Of a DNA stretch of 64,000 bases, positions 24,942-47,713 are shown piece after piece (positions within the stretch are counted from its first letter, which is position 1; each line of letters starts with the position of its first letter). The notes under the pieces are model-generated. The model was not told where the DNA came from. It saw nothing but the letters and a program-made list of their open reading frames with translations, and did not search any database. The stretch covers positions 128,001 through 192,000 of the forward strand of contig CAWCPV010000014.1 in the NCBI GenBank assembly GCA_963797555.1. The letters are read 5' to 3'. Made by a program: the position numbers and the translations under genes. Origin of the DNA: an uncultured Gammaproteobacteria bacterium. GTDB lineage: Bacteria > Pseudomonadota > Gammaproteobacteria > CAWCPV01.

Positions 24942-26130
24942 ATGGAACTGGTAGCGATCTTCAAGCGTCTCATCGGTCTGGATGTGCATCAGGGGCAAGT
25001 GACCGCCTGTGCCATCCTTGAGGAGGCCGACGGCCAAGTCTACATCGAGCAACGCCAATTCGGTGCCTTCAAGAAAGACCGCCGGGCGTTCGCGGAGTGG
25101 TGCGCGGGATTTCGCCCGGAGGAGGTGGTCATGGAGAGCACCGGCATTTACTGGAAAAGTCCTTACGCAGCCCTAGAAGGCGCACGGCATCCAAGCCAAG
25201 GTGGTCAACGCCCGCCACGTCAAGCAGGTCCCGGGACGCAAGACCGACATCGGCGATGCCCAGTGGCTGGCCATGTTGGCTCGCGCCGCTCTGTTGCGCG
25301 CCTCCTTCGTGCCGAAGGCCAAACTGCGCGAGCTGCGCCTGATCGCCCGGCAGCGACAGAAGCTCGTGGGCTTGGCTGCCTCGGAGAAGAACCGGCTGCA
25401 CAAGGTGCTCACCGATGGTGGCATCCGCCTGGGGGTGGTGGTGAGCGATATCCACGGCCAGTCGGCCCGTGCCATGCTGAAAGCCCTCATCCAGGGGGCT
25501 GCTGCCCACGAGGTCCTCCCCCTGGCCAGCCGCCGGCTGAAGGCGAGCCGCGAGGAGCTGCTCGATGCCCTGCAGGGGGACCTGACCGAGTCTCATCGCT
25601 TCGTCCTCGATGAATTGATGCGCCACATCGAGGAACTCGAAGCCCGCATCGCCCGCTTCGATGCTCGCTTGCTCGAAGGCCTGAAGGAGGAGGCCAACAG
25701 CCTGCTGTTGTTGCAGACCCTACCAGGGGTCAATGTCATCGGTGCCGCCATGCTGCTGGTGGAAATCGGTAGCGACATGAGCGCCTTCGGTCATGCCGAG
25801 CGGCTCGCTTCCTGGGTGGGTATCTGCCCCGGCAACCACGAGTCGGCCGGCAAGCGCCAATCGGGGCGCACCCGCAAGGGCAACCCCTATGTGCGTCGTC
25901 TGCTGTGCGAGTTCGCCCATGCCGCAAGCCGTACCCGCTTGCGCCGCGGCCGCAAACGAGCCATCATCGCTCTGGCCCACAAGATGTTGCGTATCATCTT
26001 CTGCATGCTCTCGCGCGGCCAACACTACCGGGATTCGGCCACTGACTATGAAGCCCTATTTGTGAAACGCAACGCCCCACGCTGGATCAAGGCCCTCAGC
26101 CGCTACGGCTTCCTGCCAGCCGCCGCCTGA
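24942..26130 (+). CDS. IS110-family DEDD recombinase; frameshift near 25185
   Basis: GLDVH, MESTG.YW, KTD..DA (DEDD RuvC-like); C-terminal GICPGNHESAGK serine motif. Confidence 0.9.
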
Positions 26131-29450: not shown

Positions 29451-31165
29451 ATGCGAACAGCAGACTATATAGTCTCCGCCATCCGCGACCAGGGGGTGAC
29501 CCACTGTTTCATCGATCTCGGCGGCCTGAACGACAACTTCATGCCGGCGTTGTCCGGAACCAAGGGCATCAGGACGATCGTCGCCGCGTTCGAGGGCGGT
29601 GCGGCCTATATGGCCGACGGCTACGCACGGGCCTCCGGCGGTCTCGGCGTGTGCTTCGGAATCGGCGGGCCGGGCGTTCTCAACATGACCACCGCGCTCG
29701 CCGCGGCAAGGGCGGACCGCACCCCGCTCCTTGCGATCAGCGGCGAGGTGGCACGATCGTGGGAAGGGCATGGGCGGCTTCCAGGATGCGTCCGGCGCCG
29801 GGATCGACGATATCGACGTGCTCAAGCGCATCACCGGGTTGTCGCTATCGGTATCCTCGTGCGCGGTCGTGTCCCATCACCTCCGTCACGCGATCACGTA
29901 TGCCTTTACGCGTCGTTCGCCGGTTCACTTGTCGGTGCCGGTCGACGTGCAGAAGGCGGAGATCGATTCGGCCTGGCAGCCGGTCTCCGAATCGCTGCGA
30001 TCGGCCCCGTTTCGTCGACGAGAATGCGCTCGACCGCGCGGTCGGTCTGCTCAACGCCGCGCGGAAATCAGAAGATTATCGTGCTCGCCGGCCCCGGCGT
30101 GTTGCACGCGCACGGAATCGACGCGCTGCGCGCTTTCGCCGAACGCTTCGATATTCCCGGTCGCAACCACGTTGTCGGGGAAAGGGTTGATCCCCGAAAG
30201 TCATCCGCTCGCGCTCGGCGTGTTCGGTTATGGCGGCTCGCGCTGGGCGATCGACGCGATCCGCTCGGACGAGACGGACATGCTGCTCGTCATCGGCTCC
30301 GGACTGTCCCAACGCGACACGATGCAATGGGACCCGAAGATGCTGCCCTCGAAGGCGCTGATCCAGATCGACGCCGACCCGCTGATCATCGGCCGCACCT
30401 GGGCCGGCGAAGTGGCGGTGGTGGGGAATGCCGGTGAAGCGCTGCAACGCCTGGCGGCCATCAAGGACGCCGCGGGGCTCGAGGCCGGGCGCGCGCAACG
30501 CCAAGCGTTCCTCGCGCAGATCCGCGCCCAAGGGCCATGCCAATACCGGCCGGAAGACACCAAGAGCGACGCCGTACCCATGCACCCGGCGCGGGGTCGT
30601 GGCGGAACTGCGAGCCGCCTTTCCCGACGACGGTGTGTTGTGCGTGGACTCGGGCGCACACCGGGCGTGGTTTGCCGAGTATTGGGATGTTCGCGAGCCG
30701 GGTACCCACTTCTCGCTGACCAACCTCGGCCCGATGGGCGGAGCGGTCCCGCTCGGCATCGGCGCAAAGCTAGCCCGTCCCGAGCGACCGCTGATGGTTG
30801 CCACGGGAGACGGCTGCATGCTGATGCACGGCATGGAGGTGCATACCGCGGCGCGCGAGAAGGTCCCGCTCGTCATCGCGCTGATGAATAACCAGTCCTA
30901 CGGCAACATTTACTATCGCGCTTCGAAGATGGGACCCGGCCCGGAACGGCTCACCGATATTCCCGGCATCGACTGGGTCGCCTTTGCCGGGTCGATGGGT
31001 GGCGAAGGCGAGCGCGTGGAACGGCCCGACGACATCGCCGCGGCCGTCGGCCGGGCGCTCCGCGCCACGGGTCCGTACCTGTTGGATCTCCATACCGACA
31101 AGACCTATCCCACGCCCGTAAATGTCTGGCGGGAACGCCAGCAGGAATGGGAGGACAACGACTGA
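29451..31165 (+). CDS. Thiamine diphosphate-dependent enzyme (acetolactate synthase-like); several frameshifts
   Basis: EGGAAYMADGYARASG, GPG..N, TTLSGKG, QIDADP, ThDP motif GDGCMLM...NN. Confidence 0.82.
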
Positions 31166-33242: not shown

Positions 33243-35172
33243 CGGATCTTCAACAGTCCCTGAAGCAGATCCCCGTTCAGACAATGACTTGCGGCGGTCG
33301 CGAGCGGGCGTGGCACCAGGACGCCGCTGACCGAGAGGGGATAGTGGTTCAGGCCAGGACGGTGCCCTCCATGCGGCGCACCGTCGGCGGCAGGGCCACG
33401 CCGACGGCTTGGAAGACCTTGCCGCAGGTGCCCTGGGCTTCAGCCCGCAGGCGAAAGCGCTTGCCTTCGTGCAAGACCTCGGTCTCGGTGAGGGCATCGA
33501 GATCGCGCACGATGTCGTCCCACTCCAAGGACTCGCCACGGGCTTCCAGACGCGCATGGAGATCCTTGCGCAAGATGAGCGCCAGGAACGAGCAGAACAC
33601 GTGACCGCGGATGGTCTCGTCGCAGCGGTGGAAGATGGGCCGGGTGGCGAGCAGCGACTTGGTGGTGCGAAACAGCTCCTCCACCATCCACAGCTACTTG
33701 TACTTCAGTGCCACCTCGGCGGCAGTGAGGTCGGTGTTGGTGCGCAGCACCCACTTGCCGTCGTAGCGCGCTTCGCGGCGCACCGCCTGCTCGTCGATGA
33801 CGAAGCGCTCGCCCTGGCCTGCGAGGTACTTGCGAAAGCCACGGTTGCCGATGAGCGCCTTGTCGCCCTGCTTGAGCTTCTCGCGCAACGCCGCCAGGAT
33901 GGCCGCACGGTCGGCTTCGTCCTTGCGCTTCTGGGCCTCGTTGAGGCAGACCACATAGCGGCGGCCCTCGACGTTGACCTCCTGACCCGCAGGGGGGCAG
34001 GGTCCTGGGCGTGGGCACCGGGTGGATGGACCACGCGATAGCGGCCGGCCCCGGGCCAGGACCTCCTCGCGCACCTCCTTGTGCCGGCACATGCGCGCCC
34101 CCAGGATGTAGCGCCAGCCCTGCGCTTCGAGATCCCCGAGCGTGGGCTGGCTGATCATGCCGCGGTCGGCTACCACGCACAGCTCCCCGATAGCAAAGCG
34201 CGTGCGCAGGCGCTCCACGATGGGCACCAGAGAAGTGACATCGCAGGTGTTGCCTGGCCACAGCTCGCAGCACACCGGCTGGCCTTCTCCGTCCAACACC
34301 GCGCCCACCACCATCTGCTTGAGATCCGGCCGGTGGTCCTTGCTGTGTCCGTACTGACCGAGGCTCTCTCCGCCCGCGCCCTCGAAGTACAAGGAGGTGG
34401 TGTCGAAGAACACACGTCCAGGGTAGTGAACAGGTCGCGGCGGTAGGCGAACAGGTCATCCTCGATGAGGTCCTTGATGCACCGCGGGGCGAACGGTGTG
34501 CGCCCGGCCTGCGCCTCCGCCGGCAGCGCCTCCCCCAGCCAGGCCATGGCCCGGTACAGGTGGTGGAGTCGAGCGCTTCGGTTCCCGGCAGCCGGTACAG
34601 CTCCCGCCAGCGCTCGGCCGCGCAATCCGAGCCCGGTGCGAGCAATCGGTGCAGCACCGTCAGGAACACCGCCCGCTCCACGGGAAAGCCGAACTGCCGC
34701 CGCGCCAGGCGCCGCTGCACCACCGCCTGGCAGCCGGTCTGCGCCCACAGCCGCTCGAAGATGAGCGCCGGCCCCACGCGCTCCGAGCTCACCACCGGCG
34801 TCTCGCCTGCGCCATGGGCATCGAGCATCAGCAGCGCCTCGCTGAAGCGCGCCGCTGAGCGCACCAGAGCGTCCAGCTCACCCGAGACGAGCAGCGTATC
34901 TAACCGCCCTAGTGTAGCCACCACCCGCTGTCGGGAACGCCCGTCTTCCCAGCGGTTCTCGACGACCTGAAGATACACCCGCTGCCCGGACTGTTTGCGG
35001 CGTAAGAACATGGCGGCCTCCCAAGAATGCCACCATGCTTATAGCCATTCATGAACACACAGCAACCTGACATAGCACTATGCGTGGCACCATAAGTCGG
35101 CCGATTTCCGACCGTCCGCCAGTCACATGGCGCCTTGCGGGCCGTCGTACCCCGACGACTGTTGAAGATGGG
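33243..35172 (-). mobile_element. IS1634-family insertion sequence
   Basis: IR ATCTTCAACAGTC (33246-33258) / GACTGTTGAAGAT (35157-35169); CAGA duplication at 33239-33242 and 35174-35177. Confidence 0.82.
33349..35011 (-). CDS. IS1634-family DDE transposase; frameshifted
   Basis: YLQVVENRW, FFDTTSLYFEG, GHSKDHRPDLKQ, VADRGM, VEELFR..KS.L..RPIFH. Confidence 0.88.
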
Positions 35173-35400
35173 GCAGAGCTATACCGGCTGGAGAGGGACG
35201 CCAGGGACGCCCACAGGGGCCTATGGATGCTGCCCGAGGCGCAGCAGAGGGTGGCGCCGTGAGTGGAGGCATCGTGGGCGTTCGGAGCACTGAAATGCCG
35301 GAGGCTTTCGACGCCGCCTGCTCCGGACTCGAATGCGGGGTGACATGGGAGTCGGCGGGGAGAAACTCCCGGAAACTGCTTGGCTCTCTCTTTCATTTCG

Positions 35401-35428
35401 ATGGCGGCTTCCGACCCAGAGCAGCCAT
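35401..35428 (+). repeat. dif-like site C (11-6-11)
   Basis: ATGGCGGCTTC-CGACCC-AGAGCAGCCAT. Confidence 0.7.
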
Positions 35429-35493
35429 TGGGCAGCCGATAGATCCGCCGCTCATCGGCAACAGCCCGCGACAGAGAGGTTGCGCGCCCATTG

Positions 35494-35835: not shown

Positions 35836-36059
35836 GATACCAACCGCCCACCCACGCCCTTGCCCCTGCTGCGGTGCGCCCATGGTGATCCTCTCGACCT
35901 TCGAGCGCGCTCATGCCCCGCGTGCACCGACTGGAAGATTGCTTTGGACCTGCTGCTTACCGTGGTCGGCGGTAGGCGCCTGATAAGCCTCGGAGGAGGA
36001 AACCGCGGGGGGCGAACGATGAGGCCAGCGCAGGGAGGGGTGCTATGGGGATTTGAATG
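35836..36059. mobile_element. IS91-like transposase C-terminal remnant (+) and element end (-)
   Basis: PCPCCGAPMVILSTFE zinc-ribbon tail; 35931-36059 repeats 46553-46682 and contains oriIS-like CATTCAAATCCCCATAG on the minus strand. Confidence 0.6.
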
Positions 36060-36376
36060 TTGCCGGCTGGTCTTGGAATGTCCCATATCAAGACACAGCC
36101 CGACCCGACCGGTGGGCAGAATATGGGGCGTGTGCGCTGAAGCGCATGCCCTAGCTCTCCGACATCTGGCGAAGCTGGCCCGCTTGGCCGGGCTCACGTC
36201 GTCATCGTTCCAGCCGCCTTGACCTTGGTCGCCGAACCACTGCCTCGACATATTCGTCCCCGCTGGATAGCCCACGGATAGCAAATTACCCGAGCCAACA
36301 GCGACGCTTGGGTCGCAACAACTGTGAGTCAATCTACGAGGAAATGCGTTACTGTCGGAGAGACCCTTCATGGGTC

Positions 36377-38040
36377 CTATCCGTTAGAAACGAGGATCTC
36401 CCGCAGTCTCGCCCAGCTTTCCTCAGGCAAGGTGCTGAGCACCCGCACCAGGCGGGCGTCGCCGCTCTTCAAGACCATGCTCCGAACCTTCGAGGCCATC
36501 TCCTCGCCCTTTTGTACTTCGTGCTCGTCCAGATCCATACCTCGCACGATCGCCTCAGCACGCAGTGCTTCGTCTAACGTGAGGGTAAAGGCGGCACTGA
36601 ACGAGGATCCGCATACTTGGCAGGATGTCGCCATGGCAGGGTTGAGGGACCCGCAGTCGCCGCAGGGCTTGAACTGCCGCTTGGCCGCGGGAAACTCGTA
36701 CCCGCATTGCGGGCAGGTGTTCTTCCCAAGCCCGCATTCATGGCGGCAGATCGGACACCGTTTCATTCGCGGCTCTGTGTCCCCAGTCCGAGCCCCCGGT
36801 GACATCTCGTCCTCGACCCGGCGGGCATACCCTTCCAGGATCTCGAACGAGGGCATAACAACATAGGCGCGCGTGTCATCGTCCGGTCCTGCGGTCCGCA
36901 CGACGCGGCCGATGGCTTGGCGGAGGGCGAGTTCCGTTAGCGCGTGCGGCAGGTACACCAGCACCCGAAGGCGCCGAATATCCACCCCTTCGGAGACCAT
37001 GGCCACCGACACAAGCCAGCGCTTGTCGGTGTTGCGGAACGCCTTGATCTTGGCGTCCGGGTTCGGCATCTGGCTGTGTACCAGCAGCGCCGTATCCCCT
37101 TCGAGGCGCTGGATGAGCGTCACAAAGTACTTGGCCATCTCGATGGACGGGGCGATCACGAGCCCACCTGCTGCTGGCATCCGATACCGTAGCTCCGTGA
37201 GCTTGGCCCCGGCCCATGCCAACATCGTGGCCTGATAACCATTGGCCAGCGGGGTCCTGTTGTCGGCCTCATGCTGTGGCGTGCACGCCAGCCGATAGAA
37301 ATCGAGCACCCGTTGCAGCCCGGGAATGCGGACGAGATCAGGGGGGAGTTCTGCCTTCTGTTTGCCTGAGACCCTGACCGAATGTCCGTCTTCGAGATCG
37401 ACCGTGAAATGACCCTCGTGACGGTGGAACGTCACGGGACGGCAGTAGCCGAGGTCAACCGCCTCTCCATACGTCAGGGTGTAGGTGCCTTCCTCGGGGT
37501 GGGCAATCGCGCCGGTGTCATCGTAGGCAAGCCAGACCGATTGAGCGCCGTCAGACCGGATCGGTGTACCCGTCAGGACCAGGACGAACGCTGCGTCCGC
37601 AAAGGCGCTGTCGGCGCTGTCCCCCACGCGGCCTCAATGGCGGCGTGGTGGTGCTCGTCGCAGATGACCAGCACGCGGGCATGGCGGCACATCGCCTGGA
37701 GGGCATCCTGCAGGCCCTGCACGGCAGCCCAGGTCGCGCAAATGTCGGTGCTCAGGGCGCCGATATCGCCGTCCCGCCCGGTGACCTTGCTCATGAAGCG
37801 TCCGGTGACGCGGCGGAAGTCCTCGGCCCACTGGTTGACCACCTCGGCCCGCGGGGCGATCACGATGACCCGGTCAATCTCGCCGCGCTCAATGAGGGCG
37901 TCGGCAATCGCGCTGGCGCCGATCGTCTTGCCGGAGCCAGGCGCAGCATTGATCAGGAAATGCCGGTCCTGGCGCTGATCGAGCAGCCAATGGAGCGCTT
38001 TCGTGAGTGCATTCTCCTGCCAGGGACGTAGCCGAATCAT
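36377..38040 (-). CDS. SF2 DEAD/DEAH (ResIII-like) helicase with C-terminal double zinc ribbon; frameshift near 37625
   Basis: LRPWQ, AAPGSGKT, DEHHH, LTGTP, SEGVDI, QAIGRVVR; four CxxC pairs near the C-terminus. Confidence 0.85.
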
Positions 38041-38237
38041 TGCTTGGATCCTTTACGCAAGTTACACGTCCTACACAGGGCCTGGCCGTTGGCGACCACC
38101 GTCGCGCCACCGCGGGAGAACGGCACGATGTGGTCCGCATGGAAATCGTCGGTCAATGGCGCGCCGCACCGCTGACATCGACCTCCTGCCACCCAGGCGA
38201 GGATACGGCGTTGGCGATGGCTGAAGCCGCGCCTCAT
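38037..38237 (-). CDS. Small HNH endonuclease
   Basis: CQRC...HADHIVPFSRGG...NGQALCRTCN; ATGA overlaps on both sides. Confidence 0.9.
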   Translation of the reverse strand: MRRGFSHRQRRILAWVAGGRCQRCGAPLTDDFHADHIVPFSRGGATVVANGQALCRTCNLRKGSKQ

Positions 38238-38506
38238 TTGCTTACCCAATACTCGGTGAGCTGAATCTCACGCACCGGGAGATTGGCCGGGGGTTGAAAC
38301 TGGGCGTGCCGATTGACTCGGGCGACCGCGGCGGCATAGGAGACCAGCCCGGATTGGATCACCCAGCCGTCGCGTCGCATGTCCGAGATCACCTTGGTCA
38401 GGCTCGGTACTCCGAACAGCGTCAGGGACTCCAGGTGGGTGATCCGATTTCCTGCGGCCAGATGCTCCTTGACGGCCAGCACCATGCCATGCCGCATCGA
38501 GGTCAT
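38234..38506 (-). CDS. Small winged-helix DNA-binding protein
   Basis: KEHLAAGNRITHLESLTLFG...KVISDMRRDGWVI pattern; ATGA overlaps. Confidence 0.7.
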   Translation of the reverse strand: MTSMRHGMVLAVKEHLAAGNRITHLESLTLFGVPSLTKVISDMRRDGWVIQSGLVSYAAAVARVNRHAQFQPPANLPVREIQLTEYWVSK

Positions 38507-39113
38507 ACCCAGGCCTCCGTGTCCAAGTCCGCCAACGAACGCCCGATGTCGACGCTGTCCCCGTCGTTCTCGCGGTCCCTGCAACTCGTCTCCAGCGCGA
38601 GCACCCGCCAGCCGCCGTCGGCAAACGCGCGGTCGAGCGGCCACATGACGAAGGGCAAGCCACCGGTACGCAGATCGAACTCGGGCTCGTCGAGGGGACC
38701 AGCGAAGAGTTCCACAAGGGATGCTGCGCTCGCCATGATCTGCCGGGGGCTGAAGTCGGCGTCCAGGGAACGCCGGAGTCTCTTGGTACACTGCGAATAT
38801 CTGCTGTGAGCGAGTCAATGTGCTCTCCTGAGGTCCGCCACCCTCAGTGGATCGATGTGCTACCGGGCACGAGCCGGTAGGGCCGAATTCCCCGATCACT
38901 GTCTTCGACCGGTCTAAGCGCCGCAACCGCTTGCGAATTGCCCCCCAATACCCCTCGGAAGACCTTGACCGGATCATCGGTCACGACCAAGCCGAGTTCG
39001 GTCCCCGCATACAGCAGCGCAAACGAGATGCGCGCCGATGGGATTACGTCATCATCCCGCAGGCGCTGGATCAGGGTCCGCAGCCGTTCCATCGGGTTGT
39101 CCTGGGAAAGCAC
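38503..39113 (-). CDS. Hypothetical protein (~200 aa when frameshifts are joined)
   Basis: ORFs 38844..39113 and 38503..38736 bridged by a third frame; stop overlaps the wHTH start. Confidence 0.45.
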
Positions 39114-39166
39114 ATGCTCTTGGTTGCTCGCATCGTCTTGTATGGCGGCTCGCCACCTGATGGATG

Positions 39167-40092
39167 TCAGTCGTACTCAGCGACGGCAGCGAGATGCACC
39201 ACACGGTCCTCGACGGTCAACACTGCCCCAGCGATGTTCATCCCATGCAGCCGCAGGTGCTGCCCTTCCCCGATGACGGAATATGCTTCAACGGGCGTAG
39301 CGGCGACGCGCTGGAGTAGCGAGTGCACCTGATCGAGCGAGACTTCCCCGCGGGGGCCGTCCTCCCCATCGAGCGCATCCAGCGCATACCCCGCCATGAT
39401 CTTGCCGAACAGCTTCTTGAAGGTCTCCGGATGGTCGAAGACCTCGACTCCATTAAGCTGTCCGCGGACGGCAAGGACACGCCGACCTGCTTGGGCTCAG
39501 GTTGCAGGGACGTTCGATAGGCGTCGACGCCCCGACGCCGCTGCTCGTAAAGATCGCTCATCGCTTCGGTCCTCGATCGCGCACGCATGCGCGACGACTT
39601 GGCAGCGATGTCTTGCCAGATCGCCCTCTGGTCAGCCTGGCAGGAGCCGTGATGCCTCAAGTTCTGAGAGACCTGGTGTATCTTTGCCGCACGGGCGCTG
39701 GCATAGAGCGTACGGTCAGCCGACCGAAATTCCTGCGAGACGTACGCCCAGCGGCCCCGTTCAACACATGAGACGGGAATGCGGATCTTCTTGAGGGGAC
39801 CGACCAGGATCGTGAGGTTGACGATTCGGTTCTGACGAGCACCGACCAACTCTTCGCCGTCCACTAGCAACACGGGCTTGTCTGAATAGTTTTCGAACCA
39901 AAGCTCGGGGACGCTGCCGCCTTCCGACACCTCGGTGACCCTGGCGAGGCTCCGCGCCAATGCTTCATCGAGCGTTAGGTAGGAAGCAGGTATATCGGTC
40001 TCGGCAAACAGTGGCACCATAGTCACGGCGCGGAAGGATCGAGGGACGCCGATGCTTAGCCGTTGCAGGACTTCTTTGATTTGGACAACCAT
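39167..40092 (-). CDS. ARPP-1 (DUF6569) family protein; frameshift near 39480
   Basis: YLTLDEAL, VTEVSEGGSVPEL, DGEELVGARQNRIVN, IPVSCVERGRW, C-terminal RVVHLAA; GGAGAGG RBS. Confidence 0.78.
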
Positions 40093-40124
40093 TGTTTCCT
40101 CTCCGATTCGGTACACCACTCCTC

Positions 40125-40141
40125 TGCAGTAGGCGTGCCAA
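40125..40141 (-). promoter_or_regulatory. Sigma54 -24/-12 promoter for the ARPP-1 operon
   Basis: Minus strand TTGGCACGCCTACTGCA, 33 bp upstream of ATG 40092. Confidence 0.65.
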
Positions 40142-40615
40142 TGGCACACGAAAACCGAGGATGTTAAGCATGATCAACGCATTAAGGCCGTTTCGACCTC
40201 CATGGCGTTGACCGGCCTCAGCGACATAGGATAAGATTGTTTGCGAAACAGAATAGGCTTTACGTCCGGCATGGTCTTCGACGCCGCAGCAGCCGAGCCC
40301 GTGCCGGCCTTCGAATTCGGCCAGACCCTCTCCTGGTGGACCTCGCGGCGCCACCCCTCAGCAAGAAGCACGGCGGCGTTCACGCAACTCAGCGGGAAGC
40401 ACCCCAACAGCAGCCCACAAGCAATCCCAGGGCGCAAGGCTGCGCCTGCATCGGGCACCCCGACACGGCCGTTTCGCAGACCGCATCAAATCCTGCCGAG
40501 GACGCGGTCCCGGTGCACGCCCCTGTGCGGCCCGCCGCCCAAGTTGGCAGGCCGCTAGCTTCCTTGCTAGGATTTTTAGGAAGCGCCGAAAAGCAACTTC
40601 CCCCAACGGATTGCG

Positions 40616-41107: not shown

Positions 41108-41305
41108 AAGTCGCCTCCTCACGCATCATTCCGGCGCTGGATTCGGGATCTCGCGATGCGCAGAGGGTCGCACCGTGGGACCGGAGATGCGCCCTCACAC
41201 TGAAGGCCGCCTGCTTTCTACCTCGCCTGGTCCGGACCCGCATGCGGGGTGACATGGGAGCGGCGGAGAGAAACCCCCGGCACCCGATTGGATCTCTATC
41301 TTTTG

Positions 41306-41333
41306 ATGGCCGCTTCCGACCCACAACGGCCAT
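41306..41333 (+). repeat. dif-like site D (11-6-11)
   Basis: ATGGCCGCTTC-CGACCC-ACAACGGCCAT with perfect 7-bp outer palindrome. Confidence 0.75.
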
Positions 41334-41418
41334 TCGCCTCCGGCACGACATACCAGGTTGGAGAAGGCTGAAGCTTGACCGCTCCCCGCCACAGGACTAC
41401 CTTCCTCCTACGCCACGT

Positions 41419-46824: not shown

Positions 46825-47713
46825 TCAGGTGCGCGGCGGCTCCTGTGGCGTCAGCCGCTCCAGGGGACTGGTGACCTCACGCAGGGTGCGGGTGGCCACC
46901 CGGGCATAGAGCGCGGTGGTCTCCAGCTTCTTGTGCCCGAGCAGCACCTGGATGACACGGATGTCCTCCCGGTGCTCGAGCAGATGGGTAAGCTATGTCT
47001 GAGAGTATGCAGCGACACCCGCTTGGCGATCCCGGCCTCAGCGGCGGCGGTGTGGCAGGCGCGGTTGAGTTGGCGGGTCGACATCGGATCGAGCGGGTCC
47101 TGGCCGGGGAAGAGCCAGCCGTGGGGCAGCATCTTGCCGTGCACATGCGCCTCACACCACCCTTGGCGCAGCAGCGCGAGCAAGGTCGGGGAGAGCATCA
47201 CGTAGCGGTCCTTGCGCCCCTTGCCTTGTTCAACGCGGATCACCATCCGCTCGCTGTCGATATCGTCGACCTTGAGCGCCACCACCTCCGAGGTGCGCAG
47301 CCCCGCCCCGTAGGCCACCGCCAGCGCCGCCTTGTACTTCAGCCCCGGCGCCGCCTCCAGCAGGCGCATGACCTCCTCGGGGCTTAACACCACCGGGAGT
47401 TTGCGCGGCACTCGCACATGGCTCATCTTCGCCATCAGCTCGCCACGCCCGAGGGTCACCTCGCAGAAAAACCGCAGCGCCGTCACCGCCGCGTTCAGAC
47501 TGATTCGGGAAACACCGCTCTCGGTCAAGTGCAGCTGGTAGCGGCGCAGGTCCTCCGCTGTCGCGGTATCCGGGGAACGCCCAAGAAAGCGCGTGAAGCT
47601 CTTCACCCAGCGGATATAGTGGCTCTGGGTCTTCTCTGCGAGAGCTTGCGCAGGCGCATGTCCTCGATCATGCGCTGACGCAACGGGCTCACCGGTTTAT
47701 GCTCGATACTCAT
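46825..47713 (-). CDS. Tyrosine recombinase with N-terminal SAM-like domain (IS91-associated type); two frameshifts
   Basis: LRQRMIEDMRLR, YGAGLRTSE, QGKGRKDR, HTLRHS, VLLGHKKLETTALY (R-K-H-R-H-Y catalytic set). Confidence 0.88.

Follow-up and report, generated by a model that had tools for sequence, protein, structure and literature searches.

A conserved HNH nuclease-helicase cassette, often under sigma54 control, and its apparently decaying copy in an uncultured gammaproteobacterium

A row of co-directional genes on contig CAWCPV010000014.1 of an uncultured Gammaproteobacteria bacterium (assembly GCA_963797555.1) raises the question whether it represents an undescribed defence system and whether the copy found there can still act. 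The window analysed here is the whole 64,000-nucleotide stretch at positions 128,001 to 192,000 of that contig, and the locus occupies its positions 40140-36377 on the minus strand (Table 1). A sequence-only reading had described five co-directional genes behind a sigma54 promoter, namely ARPP-1, an unknown protein, a winged-helix (wHTH) protein, an HNH nuclease and an SF2 helicase with a double zinc ribbon, and had suggested a nucleic-acid-targeting or stress-repair module. The common direction was borne out by the open reading frames (ORFs), the gene count was not: six genes are present, since the "unknown" consists of two, here called unkA and unkB. Comparison with relatives indicates that the cassette is a real, conserved and, as far as searched, undescribed helicase-nuclease module of the RtcR-like/sigma54 defence neighbourhood, of which the window copy looks like a decaying member.

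Most of the domain assignments were confirmed by Pfam. The HNH nuclease matched PF01844 at 2e-14 (53.9 bits, cut-off 21.4), with CQRC..DH..N..CRTCN readable in the protein, and the helicase matched ResIII (3e-20) and Helicase_C (1.1e-7). The two pieces of ARPP-1 matched at 9.8e-71 (N-terminal) and 5.7e-9 (C-terminal), reaching 238.9 bits against a cut-off of 27, while the winged-helix protein only just passed HTH_39 (1.6e-4, 21.9 bits, cut-off 21.3). The double zinc ribbon stayed under the cut-off of the DZR model (19.6 against 27.3 bits), but two CxxC..CxxC ribbons are readable in the helicase; they are invariant in relatives, and all 8 cysteines are kept relative to the helicase sequence A1. 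Helicase motifs I (GxGKT), II (DEHH), III (TGTP) and VI (QxxGRxxR) are all there, in no single open frame. Direct reading also verified the three ATGA overlaps at 38503-38506, 38234-38237 and 38037-38040, taken as a sign that translation of these genes is coupled. For unkA, no match was found in Pfam, NCBIfam, PHROG or PADLOC.

Table 1. Features of the cassette locus and of other parts of the window mentioned in the text
Feature	Position in window	Strand	Remarks
Sigma54-type promoter TGGCACGCCTACTGCA	40125..40140	-	-24 GG / -12 GC; 33 nt upstream of the ARPP-1 ATG
ARPP-1 (PF20208)	39167..40092	-	frameshifted; variable accessory of the cassette; Pfam
unkA	38844..39113	-	89 amino acids, C-terminal ...SIH; without known family
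unkB	38503..38818	-	TTG start; small helical protein without known family; frameshifted
Winged-helix protein wHTH (HTH_39)	38234..38506	-	intact; Pfam
Minimal HNH nuclease	38037..38237	-	66 amino acids; two CxxC pairs and DH..N..N; intact
SF2 (DEHH-box) helicase	36377..38040	-	two zinc ribbons, C-terminal helical tail; frameshifted
Dispersed repeat copy	35294..35429	+	probably site C of the sequence-only reading
Dispersed repeat copy	41203..41334	+	probably site D of the sequence-only reading
IS110-family transposase	24942..26127	+	split across two frames
Thiamine-pyrophosphate enzyme	29451..31162	+	three overlapping ORFs in different frames encode its N, M and C domains
IS4-like DDE transposase	33443..35011	-	split across two frames
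Tyrosine integrase fragment	46854..47606	-	Phage_integrase 2.2e-25
ccm cytochrome-c maturation operon	48.1-55.7 kb		intact

Relatives were collected in two scans. The genome scan, with one genome per species, gave 14 close loci (helicase 61-76% identical) in alpha-, beta- and gammaproteobacteria, among them Thiobacillus, Halioglobus, Competibacteraceae, Mesorhizobium, Parablastomonas and several metagenome-assembled genomes. The metagenome scan gave 339 relatives, of which 80 loci were kept; counts from it refer to loci with enough flanking sequence. The winged-helix gene accompanied the helicase in 13 of the 14 genome loci and in 70/70 metagenome loci, unkB in 13/14 and 60/65, and the HNH nuclease in 10/14 and 64/74. 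The constant core of the cassette is made up of unkB, the winged-helix protein, the HNH nuclease and the SF2 DEHH helicase with its double zinc ribbon. Of the companions named by the sequence-only reading, the winged-helix and HNH genes thus belong to the conserved set and ARPP-1 does not. The distribution over the three classes is patchy, at 61-90% identity.

In 6 of the 10 genome loci and 27 of the 66 metagenome loci that have an HNH domain (33/76), it is encoded in frame with the helicase as a fusion, which argues that nuclease and helicase act together, as had been supposed from the window alone. A profile search of 1.84 billion representatives returned 1116 helicase clusters at E <= 1e-30. 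When members of this wider family were sampled, a Pfam HNH domain was present in 17/18 of those with an N-terminal extension, at that extension, and in 0/5 of those without one, so that the window, with its split pair, shows one variant of an HNH-helicase architecture that is widespread. In a profile search of the PDB the closest solved helicases were RadD (4e-7), LlaGI/LlaBIII and XPB/Rad25. A predicted complex of the helicase (A1) with the winged-helix protein (A4) scored 0.00 against a mark of 0.32 in a run without controls and weighs neither way.

The proposed sigma54 promoter was upheld. TGGCACGCCTACTGCA is the sole match to TGGCACN5YTGCW in the 64 kb window and consists of a -24 TGGCAC and a -12 TTGCW element with 5-nt spacing, upstream of the first gene. 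The expected count for this pattern is 0.14, and at least one match occurred in 13 of 100 shuffles; a search of the minus strand within 35900-40600 gave no sigma70-like site. On match statistics alone the promoter is weak, but it is strongly supported because its position is conserved in relatives: TGGCAC-N5-YTGC lies just upstream of the first cassette gene in 10/14 genome loci, and a promoter stands between activator and cassette in all 15 metagenome loci with any activator hit. Wherever an activator is present, the promoter lies between it and the cassette. The positions that the pattern leaves free follow the sigma54 consensus: of the 33 promoters compared, 31 have C at position 6, all have a purine at position 7 and 31 have A or T at position 16. 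When the sequences ahead of the promoters were searched for a common enhancer motif, only generic AT-rich words emerged (16/21 loci, against 9/21 in shuffles). The AT-rich tract of the relatives is missing upstream of the window copy, and no enhancer site is claimed.

In 9 of the 14 genome loci a divergent activator gene is located upstream of the cassette. Its product carries Sigma54_activat (1e-65 to 1e-71) and HTH_8, and the gene is complete in loci L001, L004, L007, L011 and L012 and partial or split in L002, L003, L009 and L010. The GAFTGA motif is readable in the activator sequences of relatives, and the Pfam RtcR model gives 19 bits, under its cut-off of 23.1. An AlphaFold model of the N-terminal 175 residues, built from 7 sequences (pLDDT 83.6, pTM 0.82), was used for a Foldseek search, in which CARF proteins came out on top (Csm6 at 7e-7, followed by Can2, Card1, Cad1, Cami1 and a ring nuclease) and 34 chains matched at E <= 1e-3. 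A sequence profile of the same domain found nothing in the PDB at E < 0.2, so the CARF link comes from the fold search. With these CARF hits, Sigma54_activat and HTH_8, the activator has a CARF-AAA+-HTH architecture like that of RtcR. Neither RtcA nor RtcB was found among the neighbours scanned around the relatives' loci.

Four of 9 genome loci and 5 of 11 metagenome loci have a second sigma54-type promoter immediately behind the stop codon of the activator. The genes on this far side vary. In L042 they encode HsdR-HsdM-HsdS, an NsnB/OLD-like ATPase, two unknown proteins and a DruE helicase (3e-174); in L043 they encode DUF4145-HsdR (2e-267), HsdM, HsdS and further ATPases. The Parablastomonas and two Mesorhizobium genomes have a conserved pair of about 1900 and 342 amino acids in this place (L044:12975-19738, L045:121-6836 and L046:1179-6884). 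Neither protein has a PADLOC match, and the larger one shows a weak AAA_22 match in two of the three loci and none in L045; both are candidate unknown defence genes. The genome that holds the window has a comparable region on contig C3 (L127), where a frameshifted RtcR-like paralogue, 63% identical to the activator of L001, lies at C3:1012347-1013859(-). Its stop codon is followed by a sigma54-type promoter (C3:1012346) and a gene for a 626-amino-acid NsnB/PDC-M55A-like ATPase (1e-39). IS-like ORFs and PLD-helicase fragments are also present within C3:1004000-1014000, and the locus looks like a degraded defence superoperon.

The slot directly behind the cassette promoter is variable and holds nothing, unkA, ARPP-1 plus unkA, or another small protein. 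ARPP-1, which had been counted with the set, proved to be a rare add-on with three other occurrences, in 1/14 genome loci (L009) and 2/80 metagenome loci (L055 and L058); it was also seen in a relative in sequencing run X3, in which the unkA region is uncovered. The order ARPP-1, unkA is shared by the window, L009 and L058; in L055, which also has ARPP-1, the short stretch in front of unkB contains no ORF resembling unkA. With X at its break, the window ARPP-1 aligns over its full length with those of L009, L055 and L058, and the PVSCVE.GRW and ARQNR motifs are kept. The unkA family comprises proteins of 90-120 amino acids that have motifs in common and end in [ST][ILV]H, and homologues occupy the first slot in L001, L002, L009, L058, L059, L062, L064, L065, L070 and L071. 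Nine activator-less loci (L077, L085, L086, L087, L088, L097, L104, L105 and L108) instead have another conserved first-slot protein of 93-115 amino acids, directly upstream of unkB and without a Pfam match. This protein is often found near caspase, CHAT or ECF-sigma genes. For unkB, 51 clusters were found in a set of 5.8 billion proteins, none with a Pfam domain. Its AF2 model is all-helical (pLDDT 79.6, pTM 0.41); no usable fold match was obtained with Foldseek against the PDB or in the wide VIA search (best Z 5.6, a helical hairpin only), and the ESM Atlas returned nothing usable (best score 0.78).

Cassettes without an activator adjoin caspase/Sel1, CHAT, ECF sigma/anti-sigma, VWA plus kinase, ThiF/Fic/NYN, HsdS-AAA, WYL-WCX regulator and SprT-like genes. 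From these loci the cassette emerges as a self-contained, horizontally moving unit. In L118 a WYL-WCX regulator gene (L118:1014-1970) is located upstream of the activator-less cassette and may represent an alternative regulator of the defence type.

The impression that the genes do not form a named system was supported by the searches for known systems. No model of PADLOC-DB 2.0.0 covers the cassette. ARPP-1, unkA and unkB have no match there, the winged-helix protein has one weak partial match (E 0.003), and the HNH and helicase motifs give partial matches only; for the helicase these are to PbeA, Cas3 and DinG, the best with 48 bits over about 80 residues. A full-text literature search found no paper describing the cassette. 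The idea that sigma54 control would be unusual for defence did not hold, since published precedents exist: RtcR-like CARF-NtrC proteins unlinked to Rtc often adjoin restriction-modification (R-M) systems (Makarova et al. 2014, PMC4012209), and RtcR homologues lead superoperons with type I R-M, Druantia III and CoCoNuT, for which RNA fragments with cyclic-phosphate ends were proposed as the signal (Bell et al. 2024, PMC11090510). Defence genes under sigma54 control are thus no novelty in themselves. The text available from these two papers makes no mention of a divergent unkB-wHTH-HNH-helicase operon, and "HNH" has 0 occurrences in the text of PMC11090510, figures and supplements aside.

Several characterised systems share parts of this organisation. 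Like RtcR-RtcBA of E. coli and Salmonella, the relatives combine a CARF-AAA+-HTH activator, an adjacent sigma54 promoter and nucleic-acid enzymes; the cargo differs, being HNH plus helicase without RtcA or RtcB, and in the window the activator is lacking. As in the published superoperons, judged from the part of that account available, an RtcR-like activator heads type I R-M, DruE and OLD-like ATPase genes in L042, L043 and C3, whereas no McrBC or CoCoNuT genes were identified here. In defence effectors such as the Cas3 HD-helicase, Hachiman HamAB and the type ISP enzyme LlaGI, an SF2 translocase is combined with a nuclease, sometimes in one polypeptide. The cassette helicase has profile similarity to LlaGI/LlaBIII, but unlike these effectors the cassette has a minimal HNH, an obligatory winged-helix protein and two small proteins, and neither a methyltransferase nor a guide. 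XPB pairs with a nuclease, and XPB-Bax1 and RadD, which has a zinc ribbon after RecA2, provide the closest solved cores; the cassette helicase scores far below the family cut-offs and differs from them in context and regulation. ARPP has been predicted to be a sugar-acting enzyme of ARG-centred conflict systems and also has nucleases, helicases and a WYL regulator among its neighbours (Iyer et al. 2022, PMC9503650). The ARPP-1 of the window, in its frameshifted gene, keeps the conserved Cys and Gln of the full-length domain, but the cassette has no ARG, Macro or NADAR partner and ARPP-1 is only its occasional first gene; a sigma54-cassette context of ARPP is not mentioned in the consulted portion of PMC9503650.

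What, then, does the cassette do? Relatives lie next to restriction genes and a sigma54 activator that senses a ligand. The most likely role of the cassette is therefore that of an inducible effector module against phages or plasmids, a reading to which we give somewhat better than even chances, and a nucleic-acid-targeting conflict module, as envisaged at the outset, remains the best description. In many intact relatives the cassette would be read from the sigma54 promoter under the divergent CARF-AAA+-HTH activator. By analogy with RtcR, the CARF domain would bind a signal, either a nucleotide or an RNA fragment, that arises during infection or nucleic-acid damage, whereupon the AAA+ ring would open the sigma54 promoter complex, as is established for this class of activators. 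The HNH-helicase pair, its partnership shown by the gene fusions, would be made in a burst and could work on DNA, its presumed substrate, as an ATP-driven translocase-nuclease. The winged-helix protein, unkA and unkB may serve as DNA-binding, adaptor or restraining subunits. The activator would often also fire the second sigma54 promoter into restriction or defence genes on its other side.

A number of observations weigh against this anti-phage reading or limit it. The putative defence role is deduced from gene neighbours and domain content, and some loci adjoin housekeeping genes such as RNR, Asd and CutC. HNH is absent in 4/14 genome and 10/74 metagenome loci. A divergent activator adjoins only 11 of the 35 metagenome loci with at least 2.2 kb of upstream sequence, and the strict promoter pattern occurs in 19 of 60 metagenome loci; sigma54 control is therefore not universal for the cassette, but is frequent without being obligatory. 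In the organism's own assembly, which is 84.6% complete, rpoN was not found, but neither was rpoB; 10/12 class-level relatives have rpoN. Finally, the nearest solved helicase, RadD, is a repair helicase. This last point favours stress-induced nucleic-acid repair, in which a RadD/XPB-like helicase and the HNH nuclease, switched by CARF and sigma54, would process damaged DNA such as stalled forks or cross-links. Weak NCBIfam RadD matches agree with it, as do an SbcB-like exonuclease gene downstream of the cassette in L007 and L012 and the control of a repair operon by RtcR, whose architecture the activator shares, as stated in the sources at hand. The RadD model (NF053632), however, gives 24.7 and 19.5 bits against a cut-off of 720. 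The patchy spread resembling horizontal transfer, the variable 5' slot and a neighbourhood made up of restriction, Druantia-like, caspase, CHAT and WYL genes instead of genes for repair also speak against it, and decaying copies (the window, L009 and L014) would be unexpected for housekeeping repair; we consider a repair role rather unlikely. It is more doubtful still that the cassette provides sensing and feedback in an immune circuit working at the level of transcription, with the CARF activator firing promoters on both sides onto whole restriction superoperons. The sigma54 promoters on both activator sides would fit such a circuit, and so would a constant cassette opposite varying cargo (type I R-M with DruE, type I R-M with ATPases, or the protein of about 1900 amino acids). 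If true, the circuit would be a transcriptional analogue of cyclic-oligoadenylate signalling in type III CRISPR systems. In it, the HNH-helicase pair with its winged-helix and small partners would cut invading or damaged nucleic acid into the CARF ligand, or cassette proteins would dock on CARF, and so gate the far-side restriction genes in place of acting as an effector. There is a precedent in the binding of RtcAB to the CARF domain of RtcR, as far as that account was available (PMC9650030). Since no activator is adjacent to the cassette in 24 of the 35 metagenome loci, however, the cassette must work independently of it, and this proposal appears very unlikely. Repair and sensing or feedback are the two rivals still in contention. 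The slimmest prospect is a replication, transfer or maintenance function of a plasmid, integrative and conjugative element or prophage, with a helicase and HNH nuclease of its own. It can draw on homologues of about 30% identity in 66 plasmid records, one of them beside integrases on a Pseudomonas megaplasmid, on weak PHROG "DNA helicase" matches and on a serine recombinase gene near the L044 locus. Against it, the plasmid records are all below 60% identity and include no close relative, viral contigs gave 0 relatives and the phage collection two weak records, and the neighbourhood of the cassette has no conserved genes for a replication initiator, a relaxase or partition.

The capacity of the window copy to act is a separate matter. 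The frameshifts noticed in three genes were confirmed, one in each: a base is missing near 39479 in ARPP-1; unkB has an extra base near 38779, so that its first 13 codons from the TTG at 38818 are in another frame; and one base is missing from the helicase gene in the G5 run at 37621-37625, where relatives are intact. The sequence-only reading had overlooked that this copy has also lost its activator, of which no remnant was found within 1.3 kb upstream of the cassette. A PspF-like sigma54 activator gene split across three frames (C14:122996-123677, corresponding to L128:4996-5677) lies 4.3 kb before the window; it was rejected as the lost activator, being PspF-like and without a CARF domain. 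From its sequence, the window copy looks like a decaying orphan, a pseudogenised relic without an adjacent activator, and with the activator gone and three single-base frameshifts in place it is very probably silent and non-functional. Since sigma54 promoters are silent without an activator, an orphaned cassette would be expected to drift into pseudogenes. The contrary explanation, in which assembly errors account for the frameshifts and the cell has an intact, working copy, is unlikely. It gains from the incompleteness of the assembly, from the homopolymer at the helicase lesion and from other split genes, namely the PspF-like gene just outside the window and, within it, the IS110 and IS4-like transposase genes and the gene of the thiamine-pyrophosphate enzyme, apparently broken by two frameshifts; because of such genes a local assembly error is conceivable. 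The sequencing runs cover small shares of the region (0.12, 0.06 and 0.05), and the ARPP-1 site is the only one of the three frameshift sites that they reach. There, the lesion recurs in run X1, in a 152-nt contig that matches the window without difference, although X1 may be the source sample, and in the relative of run X3, about 92% identical, an extra G after 39479 restores the ARPP-1 frame. A query with the activator gave 14 matches in the organism's own genome, including 9 uninterrupted sigma54-activator genes, which suggests that uniform assembly noise does not explain the breaks. Whether or not the frameshifts are errors, the cassette lacks an adjacent activator.

The operon had been placed between two sites, and the repeats probably meant do exist: the two copies are direct, 83-85% alike and spaced by 5909 nt. 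They were rejected as ends of an excisable unit and do not mark this locus specifically, as they belong to a dispersed family of about eight copies (about 140-200 nt, 72-83% identity) on C14, C9, C2 and C18. The tyrosine integrase fragment stands just before the intact ccm operon and may mark the edge of a mosaic, IS-rich island holding the cassette.

RtcR-like CARF-sigma54 activators have been known beside restriction genes since 2014, and the cassette is a compact and frequent partner of one clade of them. It defines a candidate helicase-nuclease defence family outside PADLOC 2.0, adds two new small-protein families (unkA and unkB) and provides a new context for the enigmatic ARPP-1 domain. 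As the cassette is present in cultured isolates of Halioglobus, Mesorhizobium and Parablastomonas, sigma54-inducible immunity is directly testable.

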